Assembly (NCBI GenBank): GCA_019594055.1
Contig: JAFDTY010000002.1
Coordinates: forward strand, 1 to 45,393
Direction of reading: 5' to 3'
Length of the DNA stretch: 45,393 bases
Origin: Candidatus Haladaptatiplasma halalkaliphilum
Lineage (GTDB): Archaea > Thermoplasmatota > Thermoplasmata > Halarchaeoplasmatales > Halarchaeoplasmataceae
Shown here: one piece after another, positions 6,406 through 42,996 of the stretch
Numbering within the stretch: position 1 is the first letter of the stretch
Layout: each line of letters opens with the position of its first letter
The notes under the pieces: model-generated
Seen by the model: the letters and a program-made list of their open reading frames with translations, nothing else
Told to the model about the DNA's origin: nothing
Databases searched by the model: none
Translations under genes and position numbers: made by a program

Positions 6406-8646
6406 ATGGTAGAAGAAGAGATGACTTGCCCCGTATGCGATTCGAAGATACCCGTGGATTCGGATAAATGTACTTTCTGTGGTATCGAGACGGAACTGTT
6501 ACGCATGGTGGAAGAGAAAGGAGGAATCGTAGACGATGGGGTGAATGAGGGTCCTGTACCCGAGGAGACCTTGATCTTCGAATGCCCTATATGTGAAACA
6601 GATGTTGCCGAGGATGCAAAACGATGCCCTAAATGCGGGGCGATATTCGAGGAAGGAGTGGAAGATGAGGTGATAGAGGACGAGCTGGAGGCGGATTTCA
6701 ATGAAAGGCTAGCGGAAACAAGGCAGAGTTTATCCACGGTAAGAGCAATGGGAATAGGGCTAGATCACCTGAAAGCACTACTCAGGGATGCCACAACCGC
6801 GGGTTCTAACGGTGAATACAAACGAGGTATCCGGATCACGGATGAATGCATACGATCTGCACAGCATATAGAGGATATAAACGAGAGGGTGGTCTCAGCG
6901 AGGCATCTGATTATTGAGCTAAAGGACCTGGGAAAGGACCCCGATGTATACCTGGATTTTTTACGTGAGGCGGTAAAAAAATTGGACAGCGGACTCTACG
7001 ACCAAGCCACCACGGAGATCGAGAACATCAACATCATGATGGAGGAAGAGCTGGAAAGCCTGAAAACAAAAACCCGTGAGTTGGAGGCGGAATTCAAAGA
7101 TAAATTCGAAGCCGCCAAGAAGAAACTTCTTGTGATCAGGGACGGTGAGATAAACATAGAGGAACAGAGGGGATTATTGAGGATGGCCAGGGACGCCGAG
7201 AGTGAAGGTGATCATCAGAGGGCGATAGAGCACCTCGACGAACTTCTGCTTTCATGCGAAAGCGTATCCACCATATTGGACATCATCGAGAAATTTAAAG
7301 AAACCTTAAATATGCTGAGAGAAAGGGGACTGGAACACCGATCCTACGTTCAGAACATCAGAAAAGGTAAGGGGATGGCCGATGAGGGGCGCTACCAAGA
7401 GGCCGAGGAGGTCATGGCTAAAACCCTCGAAGAGGCGGAAAATGCCCTGACCTGTGAAAGAGTTCTGAGCGATACCGAGAGTAGAGAACTGTATAACGAC
7501 ATGCGTGAAATTGTCAACGACCTGATGGAAAGGGTGATGAAAAGTCACATTTCACATGAACGTATCGACAGGATGATAGACAGGGCGTCGGAACAAGAGG
7601 GCAAGGGGAATACAGACACTGCGGCCCGGATACTGGAAAAGGTAGTGGGTAAGGCTGAAAAACTGCTCTTGATACGTAATATGATAGACCAGGGGAAGGT
7701 AAGATTAAAGGAATTGAAGAAATACGGCAAGGTGGACAAATCATACCTTGATGCCCTGAAGGAAGGCAAGAAATTGGCGGACAAGGGTGATTACGACACG
7801 GCCGTCAAGTTGGTGACCGATACAATAGAAGAGATGGATAACAAGATAAGCAAGACCTCCGGTGGTGGGGTCGCCGAAATAAGCAGGAAAACTTCCATAA
7901 AGGACATAGAGGACATGGTGTCCGAATTGAAGGATTTATTGTCAACTGCAAAAAAGCACGGTATAAAGGTGGAAGGAGGTCGCGAGATAATCTCGGAGGC
8001 CCTTGAAAGCGTTGCAGACAAGGATTTTGATAATACCCTCGAACTGTTAAGAAAAGGTAAGACCAGGATAATCGATTACCTGAAAGATGTCATTGACGGC
8101 AAGGTGGTCTCCCTTGAGCTGGCCATGGATGGCATATCAAAAGATGATGTGAAAACGGTTGAAAGGTACCTGGAACAGGTAAAACATACCGTGGAAGCCC
8201 ACAAGATATTCGAGGCCCTCGAGTACCTCTCCAAGGCGAATTCCCTCGTTGAGGTTTCCGAGGAGCCCGTGGGTGAAGCAGAATCCAACGTTGCATACGC
8301 GGGAAAGCTCTTATTCGATGCCGAGATGCTTGGAATAGATGTTACCCAGGCGAACGAACTACTGGATAAGGCCAAACTCGAACTAGAAGTGGGGGATTGG
8401 GAAAGTGCCGATGAATTCGCAGGTGACGCACGTGAAAGGATATATCAGAATGTACCCGCCAGACTTCAATCACTGGTCAGGGAGGCTCAAGAGGACCTTA
8501 AGAAGGCCAAGATATTCGGTATCAACGTATCCGAGGAGATAGAAATACTGAAGAGCGCCACCACTGCAAAGGATCAAGGTGATATGGTGAAATGCCTAGC
8601 CTTCATGAAGCGTTACAAGGAAAGGATAGAATTGTTGAAGGTTTGA
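6406..8646 (+). CDS. Double zinc-ribbon protein with about 10 TPR/MIT-like helical repeats (paralog family A)
   Basis: The N-terminus has CPVCDSKIPVDSDKCTFCG and CPICETDVAEDAKRCPKCG. These are followed by recurring units x-G-[IV]-[DN]-[VI]-x(5)-L-L-x-x-A-x(6,7)-G-[DE]-[YW]-x-x-A. It is a paralog of 29125..33483 and 37787..38917. Confidence 0.7.
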   Translation: MVEEEMTCPVCDSKIPVDSDKCTFCGIETELLRMVEEKGGIVDDGVNEGPVPEETLIFECPICETDVAEDAKRCPKCGAIFEEGVEDEVIEDELEADFNERLAETRQSLSTVRAMGIGLDHLKALLRDATTAGSNGEYKRGIRITDECIRSAQHIEDINERVVSARHLIIELKDLGKDPDVYLDFLREAVKKLDSGLYDQATTEIENINIMMEEELESLKTKTRELEAEFKDKFEAAKKKLLVIRDGEINIEEQRGLLRMARDAESEGDHQRAIEHLDELLLSCESVSTILDIIEKFKETLNMLRERGLEHRSYVQNIRKGKGMADEGRYQEAEEVMAKTLEEAENALTCERVLSDTESRELYNDMREIVNDLMERVMKSHISHERIDRMIDRASEQEGKGNTDTAARILEKVVGKAEKLLLIRNMIDQGKVRLKELKKYGKVDKSYLDALKEGKKLADKGDYDTAVKLVTDTIEEMDNKISKTSGGGVAEISRKTSIKDIEDMVSELKDLLSTAKKHGIKVEGGREIISEALESVADKDFDNTLELLRKGKTRIIDYLKDVIDGKVVSLELAMDGISKDDVKTVERYLEQVKHTVEAHKIFEALEYLSKANSLVEVSEEPVGEAESNVAYAGKLLFDAEMLGIDVTQANELLDKAKLELEVGDWESADEFAGDARERIYQNVPARLQSLVREAQEDLKKAKIFGINVSEEIEILKSATTAKDQGDMVKCLAFMKRYKERIELLKV

Positions 8647-8713: not shown

Positions 8714-9631
8714 ATGGAAGAAGAATTGTATTCACTTTCACATGATGAGATAGCGAAAAGGATATCATCCATGGAGATACGGGGTGCGGCATTCATAGCC
8801 AGGGCCGCAGCTATCGCACTTAAAAACGCCGCTGAATCCTTCCACGGGACGGACATGGGTGAGTTCCGGTCCCATATGTCCGGGGCCGCAGATGTGATAG
8901 GCTCCACCCGTCCGTCGGCTGTTTCACTACCCAACGCGATACGTTATGTTCTGGGTTCAGGAGAACACGATACCGTTGACGAAGCCAGAGACTACATGGT
9001 TGAAAGGAGCCGTCGGTTCGTTGAGAATTCGCACATGGCTTCCAAAAGGATAGCGGAGTACGGTGGTAAAAGGCTCAAGGACGGAGATGTGCTGCTCACC
9101 CACTGCAACAGCTCACTGGCCATAGGTGCCATGAAGTATGCATGGGGCCAGGGGAAGAAGATAAGCGTATTTGCCACGGAATCCCGGCCGAAAAAACAGG
9201 GTTACATAACGGTGCGCCAGCTTGCGGAGCACGGCATACCCGTGAACCTGATAGTCGATTCGGCGGTAAGGTATTTCATGAATCAGGTGGACCACGTTTA
9301 CATAGGGGCGGACAGTATAGCCTCCAACGGTGCGGTGATCAACAAGATCGGTACTTCCCAGGTCGCCCTGTGTGCCCATGAATCTCGCGTTCCCGTGACC
9401 GTATGCGCCGAGACATACAAATTCTCCAGGGAAACAACCTTCGGCGACCTGATAAGGATAGAGGAGCGGGACCCGTCGGAGATAGTCGAGCCTGCAGATT
9501 TTCCCGGTGTAAACATAAGAAATCCTGTCTTCGATGCCACCTCCGAAAGGTATATCGACGCCATAGTTACGGAGAAAGGTATTATATCCCCCTCTAGCGC
9601 TTACCATATAATAACGGAGATGGAAGAATGA
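8714..9631 (+). CDS. Ribose-1,5-bisphosphate isomerase (eIF-2B alpha/beta/delta-like, e2b2 family)
   Basis: The product shows block-by-block resemblance to the archaeal R15P isomerase family: MEIRGA, TRPSAVSLPNAIRYV, THCNS, ESRPKKQG, VDSAVRY, GADSIASNGAVINKIGT, AETYKF. Its stop overlaps the rbcL start (ATGA at 9628..9631). Confidence 0.85.
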   Translation: MEEELYSLSHDEIAKRISSMEIRGAAFIARAAAIALKNAAESFHGTDMGEFRSHMSGAADVIGSTRPSAVSLPNAIRYVLGSGEHDTVDEARDYMVERSRRFVENSHMASKRIAEYGGKRLKDGDVLLTHCNSSLAIGAMKYAWGQGKKISVFATESRPKKQGYITVRQLAEHGIPVNLIVDSAVRYFMNQVDHVYIGADSIASNGAVINKIGTSQVALCAHESRVPVTVCAETYKFSRETTFGDLIRIEERDPSEIVEPADFPGVNIRNPVFDATSERYIDAIVTEKGIISPSSAYHIITEMEE

Positions 9632-10863
9632 AAAACGAATATCTAGCCCTGGGCGAGGAATTGGATCCCGAAGGATACTTAATCTGCGATTACAGGGTAA
9701 AGAGCGATTTACCCATAGAAACCGCCGGCTCACGTATAGCCGAGGAGGAATCCACGGGTACGTGGACCAGACCCACGACACTTACGGAAGACATATACGA
9801 GAGATACGGTGCCAAGGTGGTCATGGCCCAAGGTAACATGGTGCGTGTGGGATATCCAGTGATCGATTTTTCAGGTGAGTTCGGAGGCGTTCCCCAGATA
9901 CTCAGCATAATAGCCGGTAACCTCTTCGGACTGGAGTCCCTACGGGGTGTAAGGCTCCAGGACATATGGATACCGAAGGTCATCACCGAAAGATACCCGG
10001 GCCCGAGGTACGGTATCTCGGGCCTTAGAAAAATACTGGATAGGCCGGAAAAGCCCCTGATAGGAACCATAGTAAAACCAAAGATAGGGTTACCGCCCAA
10101 GGAGTTTGCGGATTATGTGTACGAGGCCGGAAAGGGCGGGCTCACCAACTCAAAGGACGACGAGACCCTGGTGGACCAGGATTTCTGCCCCCTGGAGGCC
10201 CGGGTCAGTGCGGTGAGCGAGAAGCTGGACCTTCTGGAAGAAGAGGGACATCCGATGATACATGCCCACAACATTAGCACCTCGGCACATGAGATACTGG
10301 ATGCCGCGGATATCGCCCTTGAGAACGGTGCAAGGCAGTTGATGGTGGACGTCTTCACCGAGGGCTTCTCCGGGGTTCAGGTGCTTGCGGAAGATCCATC
10401 TGTGGGCGTACCACTACACGTGCACCGTGCCATGCACGGCGCATTCACCAGAGATCCCGAACACGGCATCTCCATGCCGGTGGCCTGCAAACTGGTAAGG
10501 ATGGTGGGTGGAGATTCCTTCCATATCGGAACCTACGGCACGGGAAAGATGCACGCAAACATATCGGAAGAACTGCACTCGGAGAAGGCTCTAACGGAGG
10601 AGATGCACGGTATACATCCAACGATACCCGTATCAAGCGGGGGTTTGCACCCTGGCCACATGCCCGAATTGATGGCTAAGAGCGGTAACGATGTACAGAT
10701 ACAGGCAGGGGGAGGTGTTTCGGGGCACCCTGACGGCGTCAGGGCGGGCGCTACCGCATTGATGCAGGCTGTGGATGCAGCTTTCGACGGAATACCCCTC
10801 AGGGAGTATGCAAAGAGTCATGACGAACTGAGAAAGGCACTAGAAACGTGGGGATACAGATGA
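9628..10863 (+). CDS. rbcL: Ribulose-1,5-bisphosphate carboxylase/oxygenase large subunit, form III
   Basis: The catalytic signature positions are all present: KPK(I)GL, the carbamylated-Lys block KDDE, HVHRAMHG, FHIGT..GKM, SSGGLHPG, and AGGGVSGHPDG. The gene is flanked by the two AMP-pathway genes. Confidence 0.85.
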   Translation: MKNEYLALGEELDPEGYLICDYRVKSDLPIETAGSRIAEEESTGTWTRPTTLTEDIYERYGAKVVMAQGNMVRVGYPVIDFSGEFGGVPQILSIIAGNLFGLESLRGVRLQDIWIPKVITERYPGPRYGISGLRKILDRPEKPLIGTIVKPKIGLPPKEFADYVYEAGKGGLTNSKDDETLVDQDFCPLEARVSAVSEKLDLLEEEGHPMIHAHNISTSAHEILDAADIALENGARQLMVDVFTEGFSGVQVLAEDPSVGVPLHVHRAMHGAFTRDPEHGISMPVACKLVRMVGGDSFHIGTYGTGKMHANISEELHSEKALTEEMHGIHPTIPVSSGGLHPGHMPELMAKSGNDVQIQAGGGVSGHPDGVRAGATALMQAVDAAFDGIPLREYAKSHDELRKALETWGYR

Positions 10864-12386
10864 TAGAGAGGTTGAGGGCCAGGACGATAGATATCGAGGC
10901 GGGTGACTGCAAGGTCATCCTCAACAAGAAAGATGCGGAAAAGATGGGCCTGCGGAGTCAGGGCCGTGTGAAGGTGGGCTCTTCCCATGGTCATACAGTT
11001 GCCATAGTCGAGTTGTCCGAAACCCTGGTCAAAGAGGGGGAGATAGGTGTTCTGCACAGGGTGGTCACCAATATCAAAGTCCGGGAGGGAGAGGAGCTTA
11101 CCATCGTACCATCGGGAAGGCCCAAATCCATAGATCATATACGTGAAAAACTGGAAGGCAAGGAACTATCGGAACATGCGATAAACGAGATAATCCGCGA
11201 CATAACCGATCGGAGGCTTTCGGACATAGAATTATCGGCTTATGTGTGCGGTGTATACGCACGGGGGATGAACCTCAGGGAGACCAAGGACCTTACCCTG
11301 GCCATGATCAAAACCGGGGAGACCATAGAATTCGATAAACACCCCGTATTCGACCATCACAGCATCGGGGGAGTTCCAGGTAACAAGATAACACTTCTGG
11401 TGGTACCCATAGTCGCCGCTGCCGGCCTGCTGATACCCAAGAGTAGTTCCAGGGCCATATCCAGCGCCGGAGGTACCGCGGACATATTCGAGGTACTCGC
11501 CGATGTTACCCTTTCGTTATCCCAGATCAAATCCATTACCGAAGAGATCGGAGGCGTTATCTCATGGGGCGGTGCGGTAAATCTTGCACCCAGCGACGAC
11601 CTGATAATCCGGGCGGAATATCCTCTGCGGATAGACCCCTACGCCCAGGTGCTGGCATCCGTACTGTCCAAGAAGAAGGCCTTCGGGGCGGAGTATCTGG
11701 TTATGGACATACCCGTGGGACCCAATACGAAGGTCGAGGACATGGAGCAGGGAAGAAAGTATGCCAGGGACTTCGTCACCCTGGGTGAGGAGATCGGCAT
11801 CAACGTACGCTGCGCCCTTAGCTACGGCGGCCAACCTGTGGGAGAAGGCGTAGGCCCTGCCATCGAGGCCCGGGAGGCTCTGGCGGCCCTGGAAGGAAAG
11901 GAGGTGCCCAACAGTTTGATAGAAAAATCCGTGGAGCTGGCGGGCATGATACTCGAACAGGGCGGGTTACCTGAGGGAAGAGGAAAGGAAAAGGCAAGAA
12001 AGATACTTTCCGGCGGGGCCGCACTGAACAAGATGAAAGAGATAATTCAGTACCAGGGAGGCGACCCCGAGGTTACGTCGGACGACGTACCCATAGGCAA
12101 ATATTCCCAGGATATATTGTGCAACAGGGACGGGTATGTGGGCGCCATAAACAACCGCTGTGTCATCGAGATCGTACGGGCCGCCGGAGGGCCCCACGAC
12201 AAGGGCGCCGGGTTCATACTGAAGAAGAAGAGGGGTGACAAGGTGGATAAGGACGAATTGCTCTACACCATCTACTCTGAAAACAAGAGCAATCTGAAGG
12301 AAGCGGTCAAACTAGCCAACCATCTGAAACCCTTCTTCATAGAAGGTATGATACTGGAAAAGCACCCATCCTATCGCATGGTCTGA
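10860..12386 (+). CDS. deoA: AMP phosphorylase (thymidine phosphorylase family)
   Basis: The N-terminal AMPpase-specific domain (IDIEAGDCKVILNKKDAEKMGL) is present. So are the blocks HSIGGVPGNK, VVPIVAAAGL, SSRAISSAGGTAD, WGGAVNLAPSDD and YGGQPVGEGVGPAIEAREAL. I chose the ATG at 10860 because it overlaps the rbcL stop (ATGA); the track start at 10848 is non-ATG. Confidence 0.85.
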   Translation: MIERLRARTIDIEAGDCKVILNKKDAEKMGLRSQGRVKVGSSHGHTVAIVELSETLVKEGEIGVLHRVVTNIKVREGEELTIVPSGRPKSIDHIREKLEGKELSEHAINEIIRDITDRRLSDIELSAYVCGVYARGMNLRETKDLTLAMIKTGETIEFDKHPVFDHHSIGGVPGNKITLLVVPIVAAAGLLIPKSSSRAISSAGGTADIFEVLADVTLSLSQIKSITEEIGGVISWGGAVNLAPSDDLIIRAEYPLRIDPYAQVLASVLSKKKAFGAEYLVMDIPVGPNTKVEDMEQGRKYARDFVTLGEEIGINVRCALSYGGQPVGEGVGPAIEAREALAALEGKEVPNSLIEKSVELAGMILEQGGLPEGRGKEKARKILSGGAALNKMKEIIQYQGGDPEVTSDDVPIGKYSQDILCNRDGYVGAINNRCVIEIVRAAGGPHDKGAGFILKKKRGDKVDKDELLYTIYSENKSNLKEAVKLANHLKPFFIEGMILEKHPSYRMV

Positions 12387-24983: not shown

Positions 24984-26483
24984 TCACGGTTTACCGAACT
25001 TTAATATGGTCTTGAGTTTTCGCTTCTTGTACAGGTTGGGATTGAAGAGGACAACAGCGGTGAATATTTCAAGCCTGCCTATCCACATCAGTATGGTCAG
25101 TACCACCCTCCCCGCCGTGGGGACTGCAGAGTAATTGTTCATGGGTCCCAGCAAGCCCAGGGCGGGCCCCACATTGCCTATGCATGATGCGGATGCAGAC
25201 AGGGCGGATAGAATGTCCAGGCCCATCGCGGTGAGTATGAGCATGCCCACAATAAATACCATCAGATAGGCAGCAAAGAAAACGACTATGTTGTCAAGAG
25301 TTTTTTCGTCCAAAACCTGGTTGCCCAACCTTACCACCAGCACTCTTCTGGGGTTGATGAATTCCCGGATCCGCCTGAACACCATCTTGATTATAAGAGT
25401 GACCCTCAATACCTTCAAACCACCGCCCGTGGAGCCTGCCGAGGCCCCAACGAACATCAATATCAGCAGTATCAGGCGCGCAAGGTCTGGCCATGCATCG
25501 TAGTTGGCGCTGAAGTATCCCGTGTTCGATGCGAATGCCACCACCTGGAAGGTTGCCGCCCTGAAGGATTCCATCAGGGGCTGCCCAGTGTCTATCAGAA
25601 GGCAGGTGACGATGAGAATACCGGATGCGATTATACCTAGAAAAACATGAAGTTCGGTGTTGGAAAAGGCCTTGCGTATGTTACCCATGAAAACCTGATA
25701 GTGCAGTGAAAAATTTATGCCACCCAGAAGCATGAAGAAGATTATTATCCACTGCACTCCGGATGGAAAGTATCCGGCACTGGAAGTATGTGGTGAAAAA
25801 CCTCCGGTGGACATGGTGGTGAGGGAATATAGAAAGGCTTCATAAAAGGCGGTTCCCGCACCCAGCAAAAGTATGAGCATGCAAAGTGTTAGTAGCCCGT
25901 AAATATACCACAGTATCTTTGCGGTTTCCATTATCTTCGGTTTCAGGCGGGTGATGGATAGTCCCGGGGCCTCGGCCTCCAGCAGCCTCAATCCCCCTTT
26001 GCTGAGCTTGGAGAGCACCGCAACGGAAAGAACGATCACTCCCATGCCGCCTATCCACTGGAGGATGGCCCTCCACATGAAGATGCTCCTGTGATGCTGT
26101 TCAAGTGGATAGGGGAGTATGGTGGCCCCTGTGGTGGTTATCCCGGACATGGCCTCGAAGTAGGCGTCCACGGGGGAGGTCAAGGTTCCCGTCAACATGA
26201 AAGGTATTGCGGATATGGCCGCCAGTACCAGCCATGTGGTGCTTACCAGCACTATGGCCTCATTGTGGTAGAAGTCCTCCGCCTTACCGAAGGCTTCCAG
26301 GGGATATCCTATGGTGATGGTGAAGGAGGCCATGAAAAGGAATATAAGGGCATTCACCGGTATGAATCCGTGGAACAGGACCCCTTCCTGATACCAAAGA
26401 GCCGGAAACACCGGTAAAAAAAAGGCAAAGCCGAACAGCTTGAGTATGGTCCCCAGATTACCGATGATGATATTCCATCTCAT
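24984..26483 (-). CDS. trkH: Trk-type potassium uptake protein TrkH
   Basis: The 499-aa polytopic membrane protein has repeated selectivity-filter-like segments (TTTGAT, STGGFS, SNTGYF, STGGGLK). It lies directly downstream of trkA. Confidence 0.85.
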   Translation of the reverse strand: MRWNIIIGNLGTILKLFGFAFFLPVFPALWYQEGVLFHGFIPVNALIFLFMASFTITIGYPLEAFGKAEDFYHNEAIVLVSTTWLVLAAISAIPFMLTGTLTSPVDAYFEAMSGITTTGATILPYPLEQHHRSIFMWRAILQWIGGMGVIVLSVAVLSKLSKGGLRLLEAEAPGLSITRLKPKIMETAKILWYIYGLLTLCMLILLLGAGTAFYEAFLYSLTTMSTGGFSPHTSSAGYFPSGVQWIIIFFMLLGGINFSLHYQVFMGNIRKAFSNTELHVFLGIIASGILIVTCLLIDTGQPLMESFRAATFQVVAFASNTGYFSANYDAWPDLARLILLILMFVGASAGSTGGGLKVLRVTLIIKMVFRRIREFINPRRVLVVRLGNQVLDEKTLDNIVVFFAAYLMVFIVGMLILTAMGLDILSALSASASCIGNVGPALGLLGPMNNYSAVPTAGRVVLTILMWIGRLEIFTAVVLFNPNLYKKRKLKTILKFGKP

Positions 26484-27815
26484 CTAAAATAAATCCTCCA
26501 CGCAACTAATCTGGTCCTTCAGCACGAAGAGTATCACCTCGTCACCCTTTTGGAGAGCCACCTTCCCACTGGGGATGATGGTATCTTCCCCCCGGATGAT
26601 GGCCCCCACGATGCATTCATTCGGTAAATTACTCGTTTCCAGGCTTTTACCCAGTATCTTCGATTCTTCCGTTACATTCATCTCCAGTATGTATAGGTCA
26701 CCACCGTGTATCGATATGGCTTTGAGTGGATTTAGCTCCCTGGCCAGTCTGAGCATCATCTGTGCCGTCTGTAGCTGTGGGGAGGCTGCCATGTCGATGC
26801 CCACGGTTTCGATCAGTGATTTTAGGCCCAGTTCCTTGACTACCGCGATGGTCTTTTCAACACCATATATCTTCGCCAGCAAGCTGACCAGCACGTTGAA
26901 TTCCTCCGACGGTGTGGTGGCCGCAAAGGCATCTATACGGAGTATGCCTTCCTCGATAAGTATTCGTTTGTCTCTAGCATCTCCATGTATTATCTCAAGA
27001 CCTACCAGGGATTCGGCTGCCTTCCTAGCCCTTTTTTTGGATACCTCGATTATCTTGACGGTCATACCCCTTTTATCGAGTATACGAGCAACATTGATGC
27101 CTATGTTAGTTGCACCCACTATCATCACATTTTGATGTTTTCTTTCTCTCTTTGTTCCAAGGAGTTGTCTCATCCTTTTTGAGCCTTTTACCCCGTCCAT
27201 CATCACGATCAATTTGTCGTCATCCTTTAACACCGTATTGCCCCGAGGTACGAGGATATCATTTTTCCGAATTATAGCGCCGAGGTTCACATTCGATGGT
27301 AGGGCGATATCGGAGATCCTTTTACCGAGTACCTTTGACTTCCGCATGACTTTGTACTCGATCACATTTATCCTTTCACCCATGGACAAGTTCATATCGA
27401 TGGCCGCAGGGGTGCTGATGATGTTGGCTATCTTCTTCGCTATGAGCAACTCTGGCGATATGGCGAAATCGACACCTATATTCGAAAAGCGTGTGGATAC
27501 CGGCTTTGAAATGTATTCCAACCCGTTTATCCTGGCCATGGTCCTGCATCTCGCCGCCTTGGCCATGGAGCACGTCACCAGGTTCGTCTCGTTATCGTCG
27601 GTAACCGCGAAGAAATGATCCCTGTGTTTAAGGTCCAGGGAATTAAGAAGTTCGGGTCTTGCACCGTTACCTTTTACTACCTTAACATCCAAAGACCTGG
27701 CCCTTTCGCAAGCTCTATCTTCTCTATCTACTACGATAACATCGTGGCCCTTTCTACTGATGGATTCGGCGAGTTCGTATCCCACTTCTCCGGCACCTAT
27801 TATTACAGCCTTCAT
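26484..27815 (-). CDS. trkA: Trk system NAD-binding regulatory protein TrkA (two RCK N/C modules)
   Basis: Two Rossmann motifs are present (MKAVIIGAGEVG and VMIVGATNIG), each followed by an RCK_C-like segment. The ATG at 27815 is preferred; the track start at 27824 is a GTG. Confidence 0.85.
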   Translation of the reverse strand: MKAVIIGAGEVGYELAESISRKGHDVIVVDREDRACERARSLDVKVVKGNGARPELLNSLDLKHRDHFFAVTDDNETNLVTCSMAKAARCRTMARINGLEYISKPVSTRFSNIGVDFAISPELLIAKKIANIISTPAAIDMNLSMGERINVIEYKVMRKSKVLGKRISDIALPSNVNLGAIIRKNDILVPRGNTVLKDDDKLIVMMDGVKGSKRMRQLLGTKRERKHQNVMIVGATNIGINVARILDKRGMTVKIIEVSKKRARKAAESLVGLEIIHGDARDKRILIEEGILRIDAFAATTPSEEFNVLVSLLAKIYGVEKTIAVVKELGLKSLIETVGIDMAASPQLQTAQMMLRLARELNPLKAISIHGGDLYILEMNVTEESKILGKSLETSNLPNECIVGAIIRGEDTIIPSGKVALQKGDEVILFVLKDQISCVEDLF

Positions 27816-27850
27816 GCTTCTCACAGTTTTTTTAAGACTATGCCCAATCC

Positions 27851-28217: not shown

Positions 28218-28901
28218 TCACGCCCTGAATTTTCCTTCCAGAAACTTTTCTGCAGCCCTGGAACAAGTATCATGGGTCAATCTCCGGTCTAGTTCCGGTT
28301 TAACAAGCAGCCTTTTTAGGGCGTGAACAAGCCCTGTCAGGTTCCCGGTAAAATCCCAGTCCTCCAGATACGCCATACGTATGATACCACCATCCTCCGG
28401 TGGGAGTATGTTGGGGTGATAAATCCTGGATTTCCAGATCACCCTGGGTGCTTCGAAGGGATATCCCCGTCCCAGACGTATGTCCAACTGATGGGTGAAA
28501 GTCATGGCTAGCGAATTTCCCACCGTCACCGGGCCGGGTGTATCCTTGAACACCAAGGTAAGATACAGGATGTCCCCCTCCCGGACCGTGTCCATATCCA
28601 GATCCATGCCTTTAAGGGAGTCTATCTCGTTTTCGATCCTCTTTCTCCACATATCTTCGGGGAGGGTTCTCTCCGTGTCTGTGCGTATCAGGGTTAGTTC
28701 CTCGCCCCCCTCAACACCGGTGGCCGACCATATAACATCCTTTTGGACCTTCCTGGATGAAAGGTGTAGTTCATAGTTACCTTCCAATCCCCAATACTTC
28801 ACCAATCCCTCGATGGTGTTATCCACCTTTTTTCGAGGGTCAACCTCTATATCGACCCGTTCTCCGCCTTTCTCGTCGAATACCTTCAACCTTATGGACA
28901 T
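28218..28901 (-). CDS. Possible beta-grasp (ubiquitin-like) domain fused to a UBC/E2-like core that lacks the catalytic cysteine
   Basis: The C-terminal half reads GRGYPFEAPRVIWKSRIYHPNILPPEDGGIIRMAYLEDWDFTGNLTGLVHALKRLL. It fits the E2 signature YPF-x-PP-x-V-x-F-x(3)-I-YHPNI-x(n)-G-x-I-C-x(3)-L-x(3)-W, but has Arg where the Cys belongs. The N-terminal 75 aa (MSIRLKVFDEKGGERVDIEVD...GGEELTLIR) have a beta-beta-alpha-beta-beta alternation. The start is set at the ATG at 28901, 23 nt downstream of a TATA-like box; the track ORF extends to 28982. Confidence 0.6.
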   Translation of the reverse strand: MSIRLKVFDEKGGERVDIEVDPRKKVDNTIEGLVKYWGLEGNYELHLSSRKVQKDVIWSATGVEGGEELTLIRTDTERTLPEDMWRKRIENEIDSLKGMDLDMDTVREGDILYLTLVFKDTPGPVTVGNSLAMTFTHQLDIRLGRGYPFEAPRVIWKSRIYHPNILPPEDGGIIRMAYLEDWDFTGNLTGLVHALKRLLVKPELDRRLTHDTCSRAAEKFLEGKFRA

Positions 28902-28923
28902 GGAGAGAACACAAGACAGGGTA

Positions 28924-28934
28924 GATATAGCTTT
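28924..28934 (-). promoter_or_regulatory. TATA-like box for the E2-like gene in the divergent intergenic region
   Basis: AAAGCTATATC on the minus strand lies about 23 nt upstream of the ATG at 28901. Confidence 0.35.
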
Positions 28935-29124
28935 TTTTCCCTTTCTCGGCGCATGTTCTTCCCGAAAACTATATATCGTCAATTATCTTAGAGTCTGTTC
29001 CATATATATGCTCCGGGGCATTACACAGATTTAGGATTACCATATTCATGAATGCCATGGGTAGTAAAACTTATTATTTCCCGGAAGCATACCCGGTTAG
29101 AAAGAACAACGGAGATGTAAAAGA

Positions 29125-32100: not shown

Positions 32101-33483
32101 CAAGGGATCAATACCGCTCTGGCCGATAACCTTTTGCGACGTGCCGAGAAGGCCATGGAGAAGGGTAGTTATAAAGAGGCGATCAACCTTGCCATGCAGA
32201 GCGAGGGAGAGCTGGAAAGGATAGAGCTTCAACAGGATATCTCCAAAAGATGCATATCAACCACCAGTGACAAGGTGAATGCTGCCAAGGAGGTCGGCAT
32301 AAAGGTGGAAGATGCGGACAAATTGCTGAAACAGGCGATCCAGGCCTATCAGGCCGGCTTCTATGTAAAGGCCTTCGACAATGCGGTGAAGAGCGGGGAC
32401 GTACTCAACAAGACAGTCAAGGCCCACGATAGCACCAAGGAACTCATGGGATTGCTTGACAAAGCGGTCAAGAGCTGCGAATACCTCGGATGGGATGTTC
32501 AAGATGCGAAGAAGTATATGACGGAAGGGGAGCAGGCATTCCAGCGCGGTCTTTACGTGAAAGCACTTGTGAGCACCAGGAAGGCAGAAAAGTCACTGGT
32601 CTCCTTGGAAAAAGACATACCTGACAAACTGAAGGAAACCGAGAACATAATAAAGAGGATGAAGCAATTGAAACATGATGCCGGCGGATCCGAAGAATTG
32701 CTCAGGCAGGCCAAACTATCCCAGGGCATAGGTGACGTACTAGAAACCTTCATGTTAATAGCGGATGCCATGAAGAAAGCCGGTGTAGATGTGCATAACG
32801 AGTACAACAGTTCCATCACCGAGGCCGTATCCCTGCTGGCAAGCGCGCACAAATTCGGTGCCGATATAGGGGAGGCGGAAAGACTTGTGGAGGAAGCGAG
32901 AACCCTGGAGTTCGAAGACATCGGCAAGGCAAGGGATATGGCCATGGAAGCGCTTAAAGCCGTTGAAAACACCCTTGACCCCTACAGCCCCAAACTGGAG
33001 ATGGAGTTCAAGGGTCGGATAGATCCGGAAGGATGGAGTAAGGTGACCTTCGTGATGACCAATACCGGTAAGGGTGTAGGCAAATCACCATCACTGGAGT
33101 TCCAGGGATGTGAACATAAGGACATGGTAATGCCTTCCATGTTGAAGGCCGGGGAAACCAAGGAGATCGAAGTGGAACTCAAGGCAATCGACGAGAAGGT
33201 AACCGTAAAGGGAAGCGTAAAGAGGGTATTCGATGACAAAAGCATCGAAGATGTTCTGGAAATAGAGCCCAAGGCCGGTTCCTACCAAGTCCAAAAATCT
33301 ACGGGTGAGGAGAAATGCGACCTCTGCAAGGGGAACATAAAGAAGGGACTGGATATGATAGTCTGTAGTTGTGGCGAAACCTACCACAAAACATGCGGTG
33401 AAAGGGGAAACGAGTGCAAGAAATGCGGCACCGGTTTCGCACCAAAGAAGGTCACATCCAAGAGGGTTTCCCTCAAATTGTGA
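29125..33483 (+). CDS. Giant (1452 aa) helical-repeat protein with C-terminal beta-sandwich and C4HC3 zinc finger (paralog family A)
   Basis: About 20 units of the same motif as in 6406..8646 are present, for example NIGIDISEPMELLNKARDALKEGNHKGALDWA and RQGINTALADNLLRRAEKAMEKGSYKEAINLA. These are followed by a beta-rich segment (KVTFVMTNTGKGVGKSPSLEF...ETKEIEVELKA) and then CDLC-x12-CSC-x4-H-x2-C-x6-C-x2-C. The start is a TTG at 29125 with GGAG 11 nt upstream; an alternative ATG lies at 29167. Confidence 0.75.
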   Translation: MSGKFLKARQLAKEMEEKAKKTAEEKKKATDSLQKAEDLLDFSLELGVDVGEAKDLIDNASKKIVDMRWEEGVEDLNKAMEVLSQANFSVLDDFLDGTKEIHELMGDTERCDGSRKSMESAIELAGEGKFKEALELAKEAMELAKLEIHEKLTDELHSVETHMLTLEGMNKDTTELRDILDQARALAEENNFGEASTLISGVNEKLHGDLQESLNESISRLEILVTKIRNDGEDTTDVEASISKAKSRAKNLDIDGAMEMIKEAQGIINESLENVVLVRFQELRSGMDDAMAIEADMGPVNILLKQAESMRDERLFSEAYNIIEDAFEKLGEAKFHRVLRTIAESRENFIKAKNIGIDISEPMELLNKARDALKEGNHKGALDWAMAGRSKVKELVKEYDEIEARIERSKKMIADLKETNIDLEVAGEIISEAQGYFLDKDYQTAVEKLDEFQEHADKVAYGKVMELIEEFEMNMMTADELGLDVAEHSEMLEKSIAQIKSGIYLEAGKIAQENIGELSEAISREMKVRYENIRVLVEKIRKDLGEDEDLSELNRVTEDMEKVRDVMEKGFHREAIGIIQGISEKLERWQVGEADGALADARELVELVERLGIENIDLKDYMNNIEKAEKALENEDYTTAIQTSHSIVDELNNRMRKTSEEQFAHAKMEVVKAKKAGVDIEESRKRLIDCKKQIRDENYAESIKLSMKIQEEALTLREKRRSSYEIITRISEELTRLRREEGLKDVGAAKQILLKSKESFQNRDYTQAEKLAEQAMLKIEEVHGRYNYENKEKNLKELIAEAEAIGMDASQEEDALELCIRNSNRGEYEIAVEKLSETIESLVSKMEGYVKPEIERTKDIIDSAKDIKIDLSGPETKLNESMELLKKKDFKNSVEKIEACRREIEDIRDKSRKAASQVKQVKERMTEAKDLYADVTEAEIILGRAMDALKKDDYDRTITEALNAEKSISRAEKIRVERLLAAFESKTSDIRRQGINTALADNLLRRAEKAMEKGSYKEAINLAMQSEGELERIELQQDISKRCISTTSDKVNAAKEVGIKVEDADKLLKQAIQAYQAGFYVKAFDNAVKSGDVLNKTVKAHDSTKELMGLLDKAVKSCEYLGWDVQDAKKYMTEGEQAFQRGLYVKALVSTRKAEKSLVSLEKDIPDKLKETENIIKRMKQLKHDAGGSEELLRQAKLSQGIGDVLETFMLIADAMKKAGVDVHNEYNSSITEAVSLLASAHKFGADIGEAERLVEEARTLEFEDIGKARDMAMEALKAVENTLDPYSPKLEMEFKGRIDPEGWSKVTFVMTNTGKGVGKSPSLEFQGCEHKDMVMPSMLKAGETKEIEVELKAIDEKVTVKGSVKRVFDDKSIEDVLEIEPKAGSYQVQKSTGEEKCDLCKGNIKKGLDMIVCSCGETYHKTCGERGNECKKCGTGFAPKKVTSKRVSLKL

Positions 33484-38917: not shown

Positions 38918-38987
38918 ATCTTTATGTGCCTTGGACCTCCCTGACCGGCGCAAATTTTTTATTACCCGAATCGCCTGATTGGACGTA

Positions 38988-40259
38988 ATGAAGGAAGAGT
39001 CAAGTGAGTTTATATTCCAGTTTTTCGCGTCGGCCTTTGGGGTTATCGTTCTGTTCCTGGCCGCACTAAGGAGCGACTTGCTGCTCTCATTCCTAAGCAT
39101 CGTTTTCCTTGTTTTGATGAATAAGACCCTGGATATCGAGCCCGAACCCTACCGTAAATATTGCCTGAAAAACCTTAAAGGAGATCTATTCTTCTGGTGC
39201 TTTTTTCCGTTGTTGCTGGGTGCCATAGGTGCCACCGGGCTTATCGACATGTACTTCTACTTCGTGTTTTTCAGGGATATCGCCTTCACCACTCTTGCAG
39301 GGGTGTACGCCTTCATGTTGCTGGTGAATCTCGAATACTATACCGATTTTCGGGCCAACCGTCCCTTTACGCTGTATTTTGTGGTGATGGTTACAATGAC
39401 ATCGGGTGCCATCATCGGGGTGAGCCGTTTTCTCCAGGATGTATATCTGGGTACTATATTCATCTCCGGGAATACTCATATGATGGTGTTTTTTATCATA
39501 ATCACCATCCTTAGCGTAGCCTTTGCCGTCAACATCTACGGTTACATCAAAACCTACGAATTCTTCCCCATATCGAGCATGACATCGGATTTCCGCATCA
39601 AAATGAATTTCAGAGAGCGAAGGGCGGATTTTCTTGACTTCCTCAACGAACTGTTCGGCAAGTACGATCGCCCTTCCTTCATGCTGGCCGCGAGGGTACT
39701 GCAGATATGTATCCTCGCAACGGTGATCTACGGTGTATATATGAGAAGTATTGTGGTTTTTTCATGGAGTGCCTTCTCGCTCATGTTTGCCATATCGCCC
39801 GATCTATTCGCAAGGAGGATCTACAAGAGAGCACCATCCGTGCTTTATCTCTGGATCGCAGTGTCAACCTTCATATTCGCCTTCGGCAGACCCATGGGGT
39901 TCTACACTCGTTTCCCCTTCTGGTCGGGGCTAACTCACTGTGTCACAGGCACGTTGGTGGGGGTTCTGGTATTTTCGTTACTGGTCTATCTAAACTGGCT
40001 CCCCGAAGACATCTACATACCCCCTTATCTCCTCGTGGCGGTGGTCCTCGTGGCCATATTCCCCATAGGGGTTATCTGGGAGATATCGGAGTTTTACGTG
40101 GATACCCTTTACGGTCGTGGCCTCCAGGAAGGGGTATTTGACACCACAACTGACCTTCTGTGCAACTTCCTAGGCACGGTGATATCCATGTGCATACTAT
40201 TACTGATGAAGCTGGATTGGACTGCACGGAAGGCTTTGGCGGAAGGCCATGGAGGTTGA
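38988..40259 (+). CDS. Polytopic integral membrane protein, unknown function
   Basis: About 10 hydrophobic segments are present. The C-terminal segment is PIGVIWEISEFYVDTLYGRGLQEGVFDTTTDLLCNFLG. The ATG at 38988 is preferred over the TTG at 38979. Confidence 0.65.
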   Translation: MKEESSEFIFQFFASAFGVIVLFLAALRSDLLLSFLSIVFLVLMNKTLDIEPEPYRKYCLKNLKGDLFFWCFFPLLLGAIGATGLIDMYFYFVFFRDIAFTTLAGVYAFMLLVNLEYYTDFRANRPFTLYFVVMVTMTSGAIIGVSRFLQDVYLGTIFISGNTHMMVFFIIITILSVAFAVNIYGYIKTYEFFPISSMTSDFRIKMNFRERRADFLDFLNELFGKYDRPSFMLAARVLQICILATVIYGVYMRSIVVFSWSAFSLMFAISPDLFARRIYKRAPSVLYLWIAVSTFIFAFGRPMGFYTRFPFWSGLTHCVTGTLVGVLVFSLLVYLNWLPEDIYIPPYLLVAVVLVAIFPIGVIWEISEFYVDTLYGRGLQEGVFDTTTDLLCNFLGTVISMCILLLMKLDWTARKALAEGHGG

Positions 40260-40305: not shown

Positions 40306-41841
40306 CTATAGATATCCGTCCGGCTTGCTTATATCATCGTCTTCCATGGTGTAATCCATGGTCTTACCGCCGTCGCACTCGGTTTTGCAGGCACGGACGA
40401 AGTCCGAATGTGTCACCTCTTCTTTGCCAAGGGCCAGGGCCTGCCGGGCGGCATTGAGTACCGCGTTCCTGATCTGCCCACCGGTGAACTCGTATTCCCT
40501 GGCAAGCTCCTTCAGGTCAACATCGTCTGCCAGCGGCAATTCTTCCGGTATGTGGACCTTCCATATATTCAGCCTGGCATCCGCCTCGGGCCTTGGGAAC
40601 ATGACCTTCATGGCCATCCTCCGTTCCAGGGCCCTGTCCATACCCCGGGCAAGGTTAGAGGTGAGTATCAGCACACCGCTATGTTCCTCCATCTTCTGAA
40701 GGAATATGTTCACTATCCTGTTTTCCGTTGAATCCACACCGGAGCCCCTGTTACCCCTGTGGGCAAGTATACCGTCTGCCTCGTCCACCAGTAGTATCAC
40801 ATCTTCCCTTTCAACGATGTCAAAAAGAGATTCAACGTTCTTTTCCGTTTCACCGTAATAACAGTTGATCAAATGATCGAACTCAACTATGTAAACTTCC
40901 ATCCCAAGCTCTTTACCCAATGCCTTGGCGGTGAGGGTTTTGCCGGTACCGGAGGGTCCTGCGAACAGTATGTTTATACCGGTTCCGGCGATCTTTTTCA
41001 GATTCCATTCCCTGTACAACTTGTCCTTCTCTTTGATCTGTGTCATCAAAGCTTGTATATCTCTTCTGACACTGTCCTTGAGCACTACATCAGTCATGGA
41101 GAAAGACAGATCGGCCTTCCTCACCTGTTCCGAACCTCTATCATGTCTGCGTGGTCTTCCACGATGCTTCGTTTCCAGTTCATCTTCATCCATGATCACC
41201 GCTCCCAGCATCATGTCGACCAGATCCTCGTTTATCTCGAAGTAAGTGCCTTCCGTGCTCCGACCTGTGTGGCGCCTATGCATATTTCTAGGGATGAAAC
41301 GATCCACAGACCTCGAACTCCGGGATACGATCATGTTCTTTTGGGAGAGCGTGCTGTTCTCGCTCAGCAGTATCCTCCCCTCCTCGATGGGAGTTCCGTG
41401 GAGCACGTTGAGCAGGGCGATGAGCACCTCGCCTTTCACTGCAGGTTCCAGGGTATCTATGCCCACACCCCTGGCAGAATAGAGTAGCTTCACGATCGTT
41501 TCCTCCTGTTGTGAAATTTTGAAGTCTTCAAGTACACTTGTGGATGTGAAGGGTTCGCCCAAGGTTTTTTCGCTTTTCTTTCTCATATCTTCCAGAGATC
41601 CCATACGGTTCCGTATGTCTTCTGAAAAGCTATGGAAACCTTCCCGGGTGGGACGTGACATAAGATAATTTGCCTTTTCGATCAACTCCCTGCCTACGCT
41701 ACCAAGTGCCCGCAGATAATGGCCGTTGTCCTGGTAGAGTTCCAAGTCGTCCGTTGGACCTTCGGAACCCATAAGCTTCAACTTTTCCCTGTCGGCCTGC
41801 CTGCGGATGTTCTCATCATCGTATCCCGGGCTAATATGCAT
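40306..41841 (-). CDS. Single-module classical AAA+ ATPase with a 270-aa uncharacterised N-terminal region
   Basis: Walker A is ILFAGPSGTGKT and Walker B is ILLVDEAD. The second region of homology is TSNLARGMDRALERR. An AGGAGG box lies directly upstream (aaaacaggagggATG), 12 nt after the stop of the upstream gene. Confidence 0.85.
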   Translation of the reverse strand: MHISPGYDDENIRRQADREKLKLMGSEGPTDDLELYQDNGHYLRALGSVGRELIEKANYLMSRPTREGFHSFSEDIRNRMGSLEDMRKKSEKTLGEPFTSTSVLEDFKISQQEETIVKLLYSARGVGIDTLEPAVKGEVLIALLNVLHGTPIEEGRILLSENSTLSQKNMIVSRSSRSVDRFIPRNMHRRHTGRSTEGTYFEINEDLVDMMLGAVIMDEDELETKHRGRPRRHDRGSEQVRKADLSFSMTDVVLKDSVRRDIQALMTQIKEKDKLYREWNLKKIAGTGINILFAGPSGTGKTLTAKALGKELGMEVYIVEFDHLINCYYGETEKNVESLFDIVEREDVILLVDEADGILAHRGNRGSGVDSTENRIVNIFLQKMEEHSGVLILTSNLARGMDRALERRMAMKVMFPRPEADARLNIWKVHIPEELPLADDVDLKELAREYEFTGGQIRNAVLNAARQALALGKEEVTHSDFVRACKTECDGGKTMDYTMEDDDISKPDGYL

Positions 41842-41853
41842 CCCTCCTGTTTT

Positions 41854-42996
41854 TCATGTCTTGTACCCCCTGGAATCCAAGTCCCTCCATACCTCGTTCT
41901 GGGTGCTCTTCGGGTTCTCCATCCTGTAGATGGTGGGCCTCATGGGGTGGTTTCTCGGCGATGCAAAGCGATGATTGGCGCACAGTGTCTGGAGTGTCAG
42001 ACTCATGGTTGAGTTTGCGTTCATGGTAACCCGGGTTTCCCCCTGTGTCACCAGATTCTGTACCGCCGCTTTGGGGTCTATGACCTCGAAGAGGTATCCC
42101 TTAGGCACTTTTACTGTTACCTGTTGGTTTGTATTGTTCTCCAGCAGCAGATCGACCATGAGACCCGATTCGTTTCTTCCTCCCTTTGCATATCTTACGG
42201 TTATCATCTTTGAGCGTACCATGACCGGTAGGGAGTCCTCAGAGTCTTCTTCCACCAATCCCATGACCTCCGGTGAAATTTTCCGGATCTTTTCGGGAAG
42301 AGCGCCACCCCTGTAGCCCGCCCTCTCCAATGCGAAGGATCTGATCAATGTTCGACCGCCAACACCGTCTTGCCCGTCGGGTATGTACCTTATCTCCGGT
42401 AACGTTTCCCAAACTCCACGGTCAACAAGTTCCGTTTCATTGTTTTCTTCATCGTCGAAAACGAACAACCTTCCATGCTGCTCTTCCCCTTGTATCTCCA
42501 GTTCTCCCGTATCCTTGTTTACCAACCAGCTCTCCACGAAGACCTTGTTGTCCCGATACGTATGGATCATGAACTGGGAAGGTATGCAGATATGATCTCT
42601 GTGAAAACTCCTGTGTAGTGGAGATACGATCACAAATACTACGAAATATATCCGTTCGTCCATGTTTTCTACCAATCCTATCATGGAAGATTCCAACTCC
42701 CTGATACCAAAATTCTCCGTCTCCGCCAGCTCACCTACGGTGAACAGATTCACGCTGTCCTTTGAATGTGTTCTACGGTCCCTTACCAACTCGTCCGCGG
42801 AAGGTGGCGACCACCTATCCATGGGTAATAGACCGGCATCGGCATCCACCATTTCATGTACACCGTGATCCTCCATCAACGAGATCATATCCCCCTTTAA
42901 CATCAGTCTCTTTTGATCTTCCAGGGTCTCTCCGCTCACCAGCACGTAGACCCCGGGGCACACTTCGCCCAATCCTTTTTTTCTGTTATCCGGCAT
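41854..42996 (-). CDS. Hypothetical protein (380 aa), operon partner of the AAA+ ATPase
   Basis: The ORF is long and clean with an acidic central region. The beta-rich C-terminal part is LLLENNTNQQVTVKVPKGYLFEVIDPKAAVQNLVTQGETRVTMNANSTMSLTLQTLCANHRF. I could not assign a family with confidence. Confidence 0.7.
   Translation of the reverse strand: MPDNRKKGLGEVCPGVYVLVSGETLEDQKRLMLKGDMISLMEDHGVHEMVDADAGLLPMDRWSPPSADELVRDRRTHSKDSVNLFTVGELAETENFGIRELESSMIGLVENMDERIYFVVFVIVSPLHRSFHRDHICIPSQFMIHTYRDNKVFVESWLVNKDTGELEIQGEEQHGRLFVFDDEENNETELVDRGVWETLPEIRYIPDGQDGVGGRTLIRSFALERAGYRGGALPEKIRKISPEVMGLVEEDSEDSLPVMVRSKMITVRYAKGGRNESGLMVDLLLENNTNQQVTVKVPKGYLFEVIDPKAAVQNLVTQGETRVTMNANSTMSLTLQTLCANHRFASPRNHPMRPTIYRMENPKSTQNEVWRDLDSRGYKT

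Follow-up and report, generated by a model that had tools for sequence, protein, structure and literature searches.

Can a protein keep the fold of a ubiquitin-conjugating enzyme (E2) without its catalytic cysteine, carry a ubiquitin-like (Ubl) domain in the same chain, and still serve a purpose in the cell that encodes it? This question is raised by a protein of 227 amino acids (aa) encoded in a DNA stretch of 45,393 nucleotides (nt) from Candidatus Haladaptatiplasma halalkaliphilum (contig JAFDTY010000002.1 of assembly GCA_019594055.1, positions 1 to 45,393), hereafter called the window. Its guanine plus cytosine content is ~49% and its gene content is archaeal (aIF2-alpha, ribosomal protein L44e, archaeosine tRNA-guanine transglycosylase, AMP phosphorylase and type III RuBisCO). 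A first-pass annotation had described the protein as a UBC-like core that retains the His-Pro-Asn (HPN) triad with Arg in place of the catalytic Cys, joined to an N-terminal Ubl-like segment. Our analysis indicates that the fused protein is very likely a pseudo-enzyme. We propose, with a probability of roughly 0.55, that it is a non-catalytic pseudo-E2 with a tethered Ubl, which works by binding and may be the partner of a RING-like protein encoded next to it.

A UBC fold without the catalytic cysteine

The C-terminal domain belongs to the UBC-fold superfamily. Pfam UQ_con (PF00179) matched residues 137–215 with 36.1 bits (gathering cut-off 27, E 5.9e-9), and a phmmer search of the PDB with the 227-aa protein returned Ubc12, Ubc1 and UbcH7 among the matches, with E-values from 1e-5 to 1e-3. 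No NCBIfam model matched the protein. An AlphaFold2 (AF2) model built from a 23-sequence family alignment reached a mean predicted local distance difference test score (pLDDT) of 92.4 with a predicted TM-score of 0.72; a single-sequence model reached a pLDDT of only 35. In the family-based model, residues 82–221 adopted a UBC fold composed of an N-terminal helix, a four-stranded meander, a crossover helix and C-terminal helices, the helices lying at residues 82–97, 188–200 and 211–221. Foldseek against the PDB matched this part to Ubc1 (1fzy, TM-score on the target (TMt) 0.72) and to more than 40 other E2 chains. The UBC-like fold suggested by the first-pass annotation was thus recovered with confidence.

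We then placed the protein in its family. A word-indexed homology search with the 227-aa protein returned only the query. An exhaustive HMMER search over 1.84 billion cluster representatives gave 120 matches, 14 of which were full-length (222–232 aa, E below 1e-30). Loci were taken from a genome scan with one genome per species, in which the best 80 of 431 relatives were kept. Almost all of them were labelled as Thermoplasmata, Thermoplasmatota, Methanomassiliicoccales or 'Methanobacteriota' metagenome-assembled genomes (MAGs), with one contig carrying a bacterial label and one Methanofastidiosia. The loci fell into two sharply distinct groups, fused Cys-less proteins on one side and a separate Ubl with a Cys-bearing E2 on the other. 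The fused protein, of 220–237 aa, was found in 12 species in addition to the window, and the fused clade comprises ~28 distinct sequences in Thermoplasmata MAGs, every one of them fused, devoid of the catalytic Cys and devoid of Gly-Gly. These orthologues also fixed the start of the gene. They share the same start Met (MSIRLKV...), and a longer version from a TTG at position 28982 was rejected because every orthologue begins at this ATG-encoded Met.

Residues 147–184, the string quoted in the first-pass annotation (YPFEAPRVIWKSRIYHPNILPPEDGGIIRMAYLEDWDF), include a YP..P motif, the HPN triad, the glycine pair GG171–172 and W182. All were conserved in the clade, HPN being invariant, in agreement with the retention of YPF, HPN, Gly and Trp that had been read by eye. 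In the pairwise alignments of the PDB phmmer search, the Cys of eukaryotic E2s fell on I174. The Cys-bearing relatives could be aligned without gaps (HPNIMPPEDGGYVCTKLLDxW versus HPNILPPEDGGIIRMAYLEDW) and placed their Cys on R175, the spacing from Cys to Trp being one residue shorter in this family than in eukaryotic E2s. Neither choice leaves a Cys at the active site, and no profile or family alignment put one there. By the gap-free alignment, the Arg that had been assigned to the Cys position is R175.

The orthologues gave the same picture. A Cys at the catalytic position was present in 100% of 68 active relatives and in none of the ~28 fused-clade sequences, so that the active-site Cys of a catalytic E2 is missing from the 227-aa protein and from its clade as a whole. 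In 26 clade sequences the position was occupied by Ser (7), Lys (5), Arg (5), His (3), Asn (2) and one each of Tyr, Asp, Glu and Gly, and never by Cys. The first-pass annotation had also pointed to a single Cys in the C-terminal helix (THDTCSR). This residue, C213, is indeed the only Cys of the protein, but it is not peculiar to it, as active relatives carry the equivalent residue (NDTCTRAA). C213 was examined as a relocated, clade-specific nucleophile and rejected, since active relatives with their own catalytic Cys keep it too. Being equally conserved in active E2s, it is an ancestral feature of the family.

One subclade (L011, L012, L013, L088, P0009 and P0011) carries a Cys one residue past the old catalytic position (GGNLSCSYL). 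The remaining clade members have Met or Ile there.

A tethered Ubl domain without Gly-Gly

The N-terminal segment formed a beta-grasp in the AF2 model, with a bb-a-bb-3(10)-b topology over residues 3–73. Foldseek matched it to Caldiarchaeum ubiquitin (6fno_D, TMt 0.74, root-mean-square deviation 2.2) and to SUMO1 (6uyz, TMt 0.81). Similarly, an hhalign comparison of the fused-clade Ubl with the stand-alone, GG-ended Ubl of related operons gave a probability of 97.5% (E 6.7e-12). The N-terminal beta-grasp suspected in the first-pass annotation is therefore borne out by the model, by structural matches and by homology to a genuine GG-terminated Ubl.

As that annotation had noted, the end of this domain has no Gly-Gly. 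It reads ...LTLIRTDTER, within the region ...LTLIRTDTERTLPEDMW, and the fused-clade consensus, likewise without GG, has ...LIRTDTER where relatives have ...LIPDPEGG. The free or protease-exposable C-terminal Gly-Gly of a conjugatable Ubl was not found in the 227-aa protein; from its sequence, the attached Ubl would be neither adenylatable nor releasable through Gly-Gly. Moreover, no ThiF, JAB or second UQ_con was found in the 45-kb window or in any of ~20 clade loci. The permanent tethering of the Ubl that had been proposed is supported, because Gly-Gly was lost clade-wide and neither a JAB protease nor a ubiquitin-activating enzyme (E1) is encoded at any clade locus.

Relationship to active E1-Ubl-E2-JAB operons

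In the second group of relatives, 69 active loci, the Ubl (~80 aa) has a gene of its own, and the gene immediately after it encodes an E2 of ~170 aa with an invariant Cys, the Ubl stop codon abutting the E2 start codon. Among the open reading frames (ORFs) just upstream of these E2s, 35 of 69 end exactly in GG and ~17 more in GG plus 1–4 residues; the rest are unrelated short ORFs from crude ORF calling. By Pfam, the L027 operon reads ThiF (E 7e-42), Ubl (...PDPEGG, then stop), UQ_con and JAB. JAB was present in 57 and ThiF in 37 of the 69 active loci, whereas the fused-clade loci had neither in any case.

A neighbour-joining tree of 178 UBC domains, computed without support values, recovered the fused clade as monophyletic (26 of 26 members Cys-less) and nested it in a 120-member clade of Cys-bearing E2s. 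The 227-aa protein grouped with archaeal E2s, apart from Mms2. The immediate sister of the fused clade in this tree was P0022, which is likewise Cys-less. Judging from this tree and from the homology of the Ubl domains, the fused protein descends from the Ubl and E2 of the Thermoplasmatota operon.

Several relatives show other domain arrangements. P0022 (L090 6548–8152), of 534 aa, joins a JAB domain and a beta-propeller to a Cys-less UBC domain in which His takes the place of the Cys; its gene adjoins a separate UQ_con gene (L090 5624–6097), near grpE-dnaK-dnaJ. P0043, P0019, P0048, P0054, P0063, P0069 and P0073 are Ubl-E2 fusions in which neither the catalytic Cys nor the junctional Gly-Gly has been lost. 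The gene of P0043 (L003 670–2909) is immediately preceded by JAB and ThiF genes, an arrangement that suggests cleavage of this GG-bearing fusion by the JAB peptidase. Finally, P0016 (352 aa) has tandem UBC domains, seen as two UQ_con matches within a single chain.

Residues lost and kept in the fused clade

Per-column conservation was compared between 28 fused-clade and 68 active sequences. Conserved in the active group only were, in UbcH5 numbering, C85 (100%), the gate N114 (100%), P115, P118 (100%), E107, G105 and S97, together with a Lys at the position of D87. Shell positions that are 81–100% conserved in active relatives (the gate Asn114, Pro115/Pro118 and the equivalent of D87) were relaxed in the fused clade: among them, E203 reached 50%, and L204, R207 and A177 were variable. 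The conserved active-site shell of a catalytic E2 was thus not found in the fused clade.

A second set of residues was kept in both groups. It comprises R88, N91 and E92 of helix 1 (UbcH5 R5/K8/E9), PGP122–124, H137, Y147-P148, P152, W156, HPNI162–165, GG171–172, W182, F184 (UbcH5 P95, in loop 7), L199, P202, C213 and A216. A third set, W85, L96, Y178, L191, R145 and F135, was newly fixed in the fused clade. By these columns, the whole catalytic shell is relaxed, and not the Cys alone, while the core of the fold is maintained. Canonical E2s dock E1 and RING through the face made by helix 1 and loop 7. The equivalent face, to judge by its conserved residues, is also maintained in the fused clade.

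The pseudo-E2 gene is under purifying selection. The ratio of nonsynonymous to synonymous differences per site (pN/pS) was 0.16 for the L012/L088 pair, which is 93% identical, and 0.25–0.4 in more distant pairs, in which synonymous sites are saturated. Nineteen columns were invariant among 13 clade sequences whose identities are only 32–59%. One copy from soda-lake sediment (L085 1317–1989, minus strand) consists of two ORFs, with the middle of the protein missing; this split is either a frameshift or assembly error or a pseudogene.

A conserved neighbourhood with a giant RING-like protein

The pseudo-E2 gene is divergent from a gene for a giant protein (Table 1). In this protein ~20 helical repeats of ~64 aa are joined to a beta-rich segment, and a C4HC3 RING-like finger at the C-terminus is followed by a basic tail. 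A 64-aa periodicity was detected in the giant protein, whose full-length orthologues have 1452–1461 aa, and a PDB sequence search with its 1242-aa repeat region gave no match. The finger ligands are arranged as C-x2-C-x10-C-x-C-x4-H-x2-C-x6-C-x2-C, and all eight were invariant in 8 full-length orthologues. A profile of the C-terminal part matched the RING-H2 of RNF165 and Arkadia with E ~1e-4; a word-indexed search with the RING C-terminal profile returned two fragments only. The second Cys of the finger is preceded by a hydrophobic residue (L/V/I), as in E2-binding RINGs. Elsewhere in the window (6406–8646, plus strand), a 746-aa protein has N-terminal zinc ribbons (UPF0547, DZR) followed by a helical region that weakly matches the giant protein (phmmer E 3.8e-11); to judge by this match, the genome may encode a second, paralogous repeat scaffold.

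On the other side, the pseudo-E2 gene is followed by genes for a stand-alone double-psi beta-barrel protein, TrkA and TrkH. The 98-aa barrel protein matched Pfam CDC48_N with 28 bits, below the gathering score of 35.1, and PDB entry 7dg9 at E 0.02. Its gene was present in all clade loci that reach this position except L010.

The order giant protein, pseudo-E2, barrel, TrkA and TrkH, with the first gene on the opposite strand, was held in every genome locus extending far enough. The giant gene lay head-to-head with the pseudo-E2 gene in 19 of 20 informative loci, and the three most divergent members (32–34% identity) keep the giant, pseudo-E2, barrel and Trk arrangement. Conversely, a search from the side of the RING protein gave 6 metagenome loci; 4 of them extend upstream, and each of these has the pseudo-E2 gene and the gene order given above.

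Two departures from this arrangement were noted. L010 (8104–10491) is the only clade member without giant, barrel and Trk neighbours; its gene is divergent from a gene for a small Ras-like GTPase and a 313-aa ORF and is followed downstream by mutL and mutS. In L006–L009, an ORF of ~200–250 aa lies on the opposite strand between the pseudo-E2 and barrel genes (e.g. L007 7476–8225, minus strand). The inserted ORF has hydrophobic stretches that look membrane-spanning and has no Pfam match. A reading of the locus as a defence island was dropped after PADLOC defence-system models matched none of the pseudo-E2, giant and barrel proteins.

Table 1. Coordinates of the pseudo-E2 gene, its domains and key codons, and the neighbouring genes in the window
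Feature	Position	Strand	Basis
Ubl-UBC fusion (pseudo-E2) coding sequence, 227 aa, ATG start	28218..28901	-	ORF list, sequence, Pfam UQ_con, orthologues
Stop codon of the pseudo-E2 coding sequence	28218-28220	-	
Ubl (beta-grasp) domain, residues 1-75, no C-terminal Gly-Gly	28677..28901	-	AF2, Foldseek, hhalign
UBC-fold domain, residues 80-227	28221..28664	-	Pfam, PDB phmmer, AF2, Foldseek
HPN triad codons, H162 P163 N164	28410..28418	-	Sequence; invariant in fused clade and active relatives
Arg175 codon CGT, at the family's catalytic Cys position	28377..28379	-	Sequence, family alignments
Cys213 codon, sole Cys of the protein	28263..28265	-	96% in fused clade, 97% in active E2s
Divergent intergenic region, 223 bp, pseudo-E2 gene to giant gene	28902..29124		ORF coordinates
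Giant protein, 1452 aa	29125..33483	+	Pfam, orthologues, periodicity
RING-like zinc finger, residues 1398-1434 of giant protein	33316..33426	+	Invariant ligands, profile match
Stand-alone double-psi beta-barrel protein, CDC48 N-domain-like, 98 aa	27851..28147	-	Pfam, PDB; immediately downstream of pseudo-E2
TrkA	26484-27824	-	NCBIfam E 1e-121; downstream of pseudo-E2
TrkH	24984-26483	-	NCBIfam E 7e-92; downstream of pseudo-E2

Proposed role and alternative explanations

Our model of the origin of this protein takes as its starting point a Thermoplasmatota ThiF(E1)-Ubl(GG)-E2(Cys)-JAB operon, in which the reading frames for Ubl and E2 would have fused in one lineage. The active-site shell, including the catalytic Cys, would have been lost, as would the Gly-Gly on which adenylation depends, and the E1 and JAB genes would no longer have been linked to the fused gene. 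The HPN triad is taken as structural in the fused protein. The fold, R88/N91/E92 of helix 1 and Phe184 of loop 7 are kept under selection, and a purely binding role is therefore proposed. Through its helix-1/loop-7 face, the UBC domain would bind the 1452-aa protein at the C4HC3 RING-like finger. The attached Ubl would offer a second, non-transferable surface, either for the UBC domain of its own chain (in cis) or for another protein (in trans), such as the neighbouring CDC48-N-like barrel protein. The partnership with the RING protein, suggested by the gene neighbourhood and by the conserved R88/N91/E92/F184, is a tentative assignment that we rate somewhat short of even. It is possible, although we would not call it probable, that the locus represents a complete conjugation system which lost all its chemistry in one archaeal lineage and was turned into a structural module, in which Ubl-UBC would be a permanent, non-dischargeable stand-in for a charged E2, bound constitutively to the RING scaffold and possibly, through its Ubl, to the barrel protein.

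Several observations weigh against a binding partner of a RING protein. Prok-RING_1 scored 26.3 bits on the finger, below its gathering score of 29.1, and the best PDB alignment puts ligands 3 and 4 out of register with RING-H2. The last Cys of the finger is followed by Gly, where many active RINGs have a linchpin Arg/Lys. L010 is a clade member with no giant protein within 9 kb. Furthermore, synteny within the clade covers the entire stretch from L44e to TrkH (L44e-S27e-aIF2alpha-QueH-giant-pseudoE2-barrel-TrkA-TrkH), and adjacency could therefore reflect shared ancestry rather than function. On the other hand, the giant protein was found only beside the pseudo-E2 gene in searches from both sides, which adds weight to a functional link. 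No second pattern-matching E2 came from the 12 clade assemblies, a negative that rests on incomplete MAGs and on the best 80 of 431 loci.

This last result also bears on the idea that the protein is a cofactor of the ubiquitin E2 variant (UEV) type, which would pair with an unlinked active E2 and steer Ubl transfer, its own Ubl being a tethered acceptor or positioning element. The Cys-less UBC fold would suit such a role, active E1-Ubl-E2-JAB operons are widespread in the same phylum, and other Cys-less UBC variants stand beside an ordinary UQ_con gene, P0022 in L090 being one example. However, besides the lack of a second E2 in the set just mentioned, the window and the ~20 clade loci have no ThiF, JAB or second UQ_con, and the Pfam UEV model (PF05743) did not match the 227-aa protein at E <= 1. 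We consider a UEV-type cofactor unlikely. We are equally doubtful of a role as a Trk accessory, in which the pseudo-E2 and the barrel protein would regulate or assist potassium uptake by TrkA/TrkH and the giant RING gene would be incidental. The genes are indeed on the same strand, with gaps of 70 nt to the barrel gene and 26 nt to TrkA, which itself abuts TrkH, and the order pseudo-E2, barrel, TrkA and TrkH is kept even in the most divergent members. Against this, L010 has a pseudo-E2 without Trk genes, and the opposite-strand gene inserted in L006–L009 indicates that co-transcription of pseudo-E2 and barrel is not obligatory. We know of no UBC-fold or Ubl subunit of Trk systems.

Could the protein still be catalytic through a non-canonical nucleophile, such as C213, the Cys at position +1 of some members (L011–L013, L088, P0009 and P0011), or the Ser or Lys at the old site? 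C213 is 96% conserved in the clade and aligns to the start of helix 3, past the loop that flanks the canonical E2 active site. Nevertheless, it is 97% conserved in active E2s and is thus not a replacement; the residue at the old site is free to vary (S/K/R/H/N/Y/D/E/G); and position +1, otherwise Met or Ile, points to a core position. With N114, P115 and P118 relaxed, no Gly-Gly on the Ubl and no linked E1, continued catalysis is highly improbable. The converse possibility, a decaying relic without function, would account for the lost catalytic residues and for the L085 copy split into two ORFs. It is contradicted by the selection and conservation data, namely the pN/pS of 0.16, the 19 invariant columns at 32–59% identity, the length kept at 220–237 aa over ~28 sequences and the new clade-specific W85, Y178, R145 and F135, and we give it hardly any credence.

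Other features of the window

At 111–2053 (minus strand), two adjacent ORFs of 255 and 400 aa contain tandem helix-turn-helix (HTH) units (HTH_28/HTH_23, at least 4 stretches) in an unusual architecture. A 511-aa AAA ATPase (40306–41841, minus strand) has an N-terminal part of ~260 aa without a Pfam match; both ORFs flanking it, 41854–42996 (minus strand, 380 aa) and 38979–40259 (plus strand, 426 aa), have no Pfam match either. At 8714–12386 (plus strand), consecutive genes encode an IF-2B-family protein, the large subunit of type III RuBisCO and an AMP/thymidine-phosphorylase-like protein, a trio that matches the archaeal AMP-recycling pathway. A weak Molydop_binding (barrel-type) match is common to the N-terminus of this phosphorylase and the 98-aa barrel protein.

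Comparison with known systems and significance

A published tree (bioRxiv 10.1101/2023.07.25.550441) includes a 'Ca. Thermoplasmatota E2' clade. In common with the E2s of the Thermoplasmatota operons, the window protein has HPNI-x-PP-x-x-GG, LP...R..NE in helix 1 and a second Cys in ..C..A; its Ubl is homologous to the operon Ubl and its UBC domain is nested in the operon E2 clade. Unlike them, it is fused, without Gly-Gly or catalytic Cys, has a relaxed shell and no E1 or JAB neighbours, and its gene neighbours that of a giant RING-like protein. With the eukaryotic UEVs (Mms2/Uev1 and Tsg101; PF05743), which act by binding, it shares a UBC fold without catalytic Cys; it differs in having arisen independently in an archaeal E2 clade, in keeping HPN, which is lost from Mms2 in the alignment, and in carrying a covalent Ubl.

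In prokaryotes, bacterial polyUbl proteins fused to an inactive E2/RWD-like domain have been described (Iyer, Burroughs and Aravind 2006, Table 1; PMC1779556). There too one or more Ubl domains are joined to an inactive UBC-fold domain. The operons of those proteins also encode a JAB-E1 fusion and a protein that binds metal, neither of which accompanies the window gene, and the window protein is archaeal and derived from a eukaryote-type HPN E2, the two being compared here by architecture alone. The other parallel is the Caldiarchaeum subterraneum operon for ubiquitin, E1, E2, a small RING protein and Rpn11 (PMC3082918, PMC5654768, PMC6043591), in which an archaeal, eukaryote-like ubiquitin, E2 and RING finger are also encoded together and whose ubiquitin (CsUb) is matched in structure by the window Ubl. 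Caldiarchaeum, however, has an active cascade with E1, catalytic E2 and deubiquitinase, whereas in the window only a dead E2 with its dead Ubl is left, along with a RING-like finger carried by a scaffold of 1452 aa. A full-text literature search gave no description of the fused Cys-less clade or its RING neighbour, only the general Thermoplasmatota E2 clade and the bacterial precedent of a Ubl with an inactive E2.

The protein passes the UQ_con threshold, and databases would therefore label it a ubiquitin-conjugating enzyme. Such a label would mislead, as on the evidence above the protein cannot be one. More generally, a single phylum documents every stage between an active E1-Ubl-E2-JAB operon and a derivative that is fused, dead and still selected, with what may be new partners, and thus offers a natural experiment on the origin of pseudo-E2s such as the UEV proteins. 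It separates structural features, which survive (HPN, helix 1 and the loop-7 Phe), from catalytic ones, which are lost (Cys, gate Asn and prolines). Should the RING partnership prove real, this would be a simple prokaryotic system in which RING-UBC recognition is uncoupled from Ubl transfer. If, further, the conjugation system has been stripped of its chemistry as outlined above, RING-E2 and Ubl-receptor recognition would have persisted in a prokaryote under selection for protein-protein contact alone, an origin separate from that of the UEV and RWD pseudo-E2s of eukaryotes.

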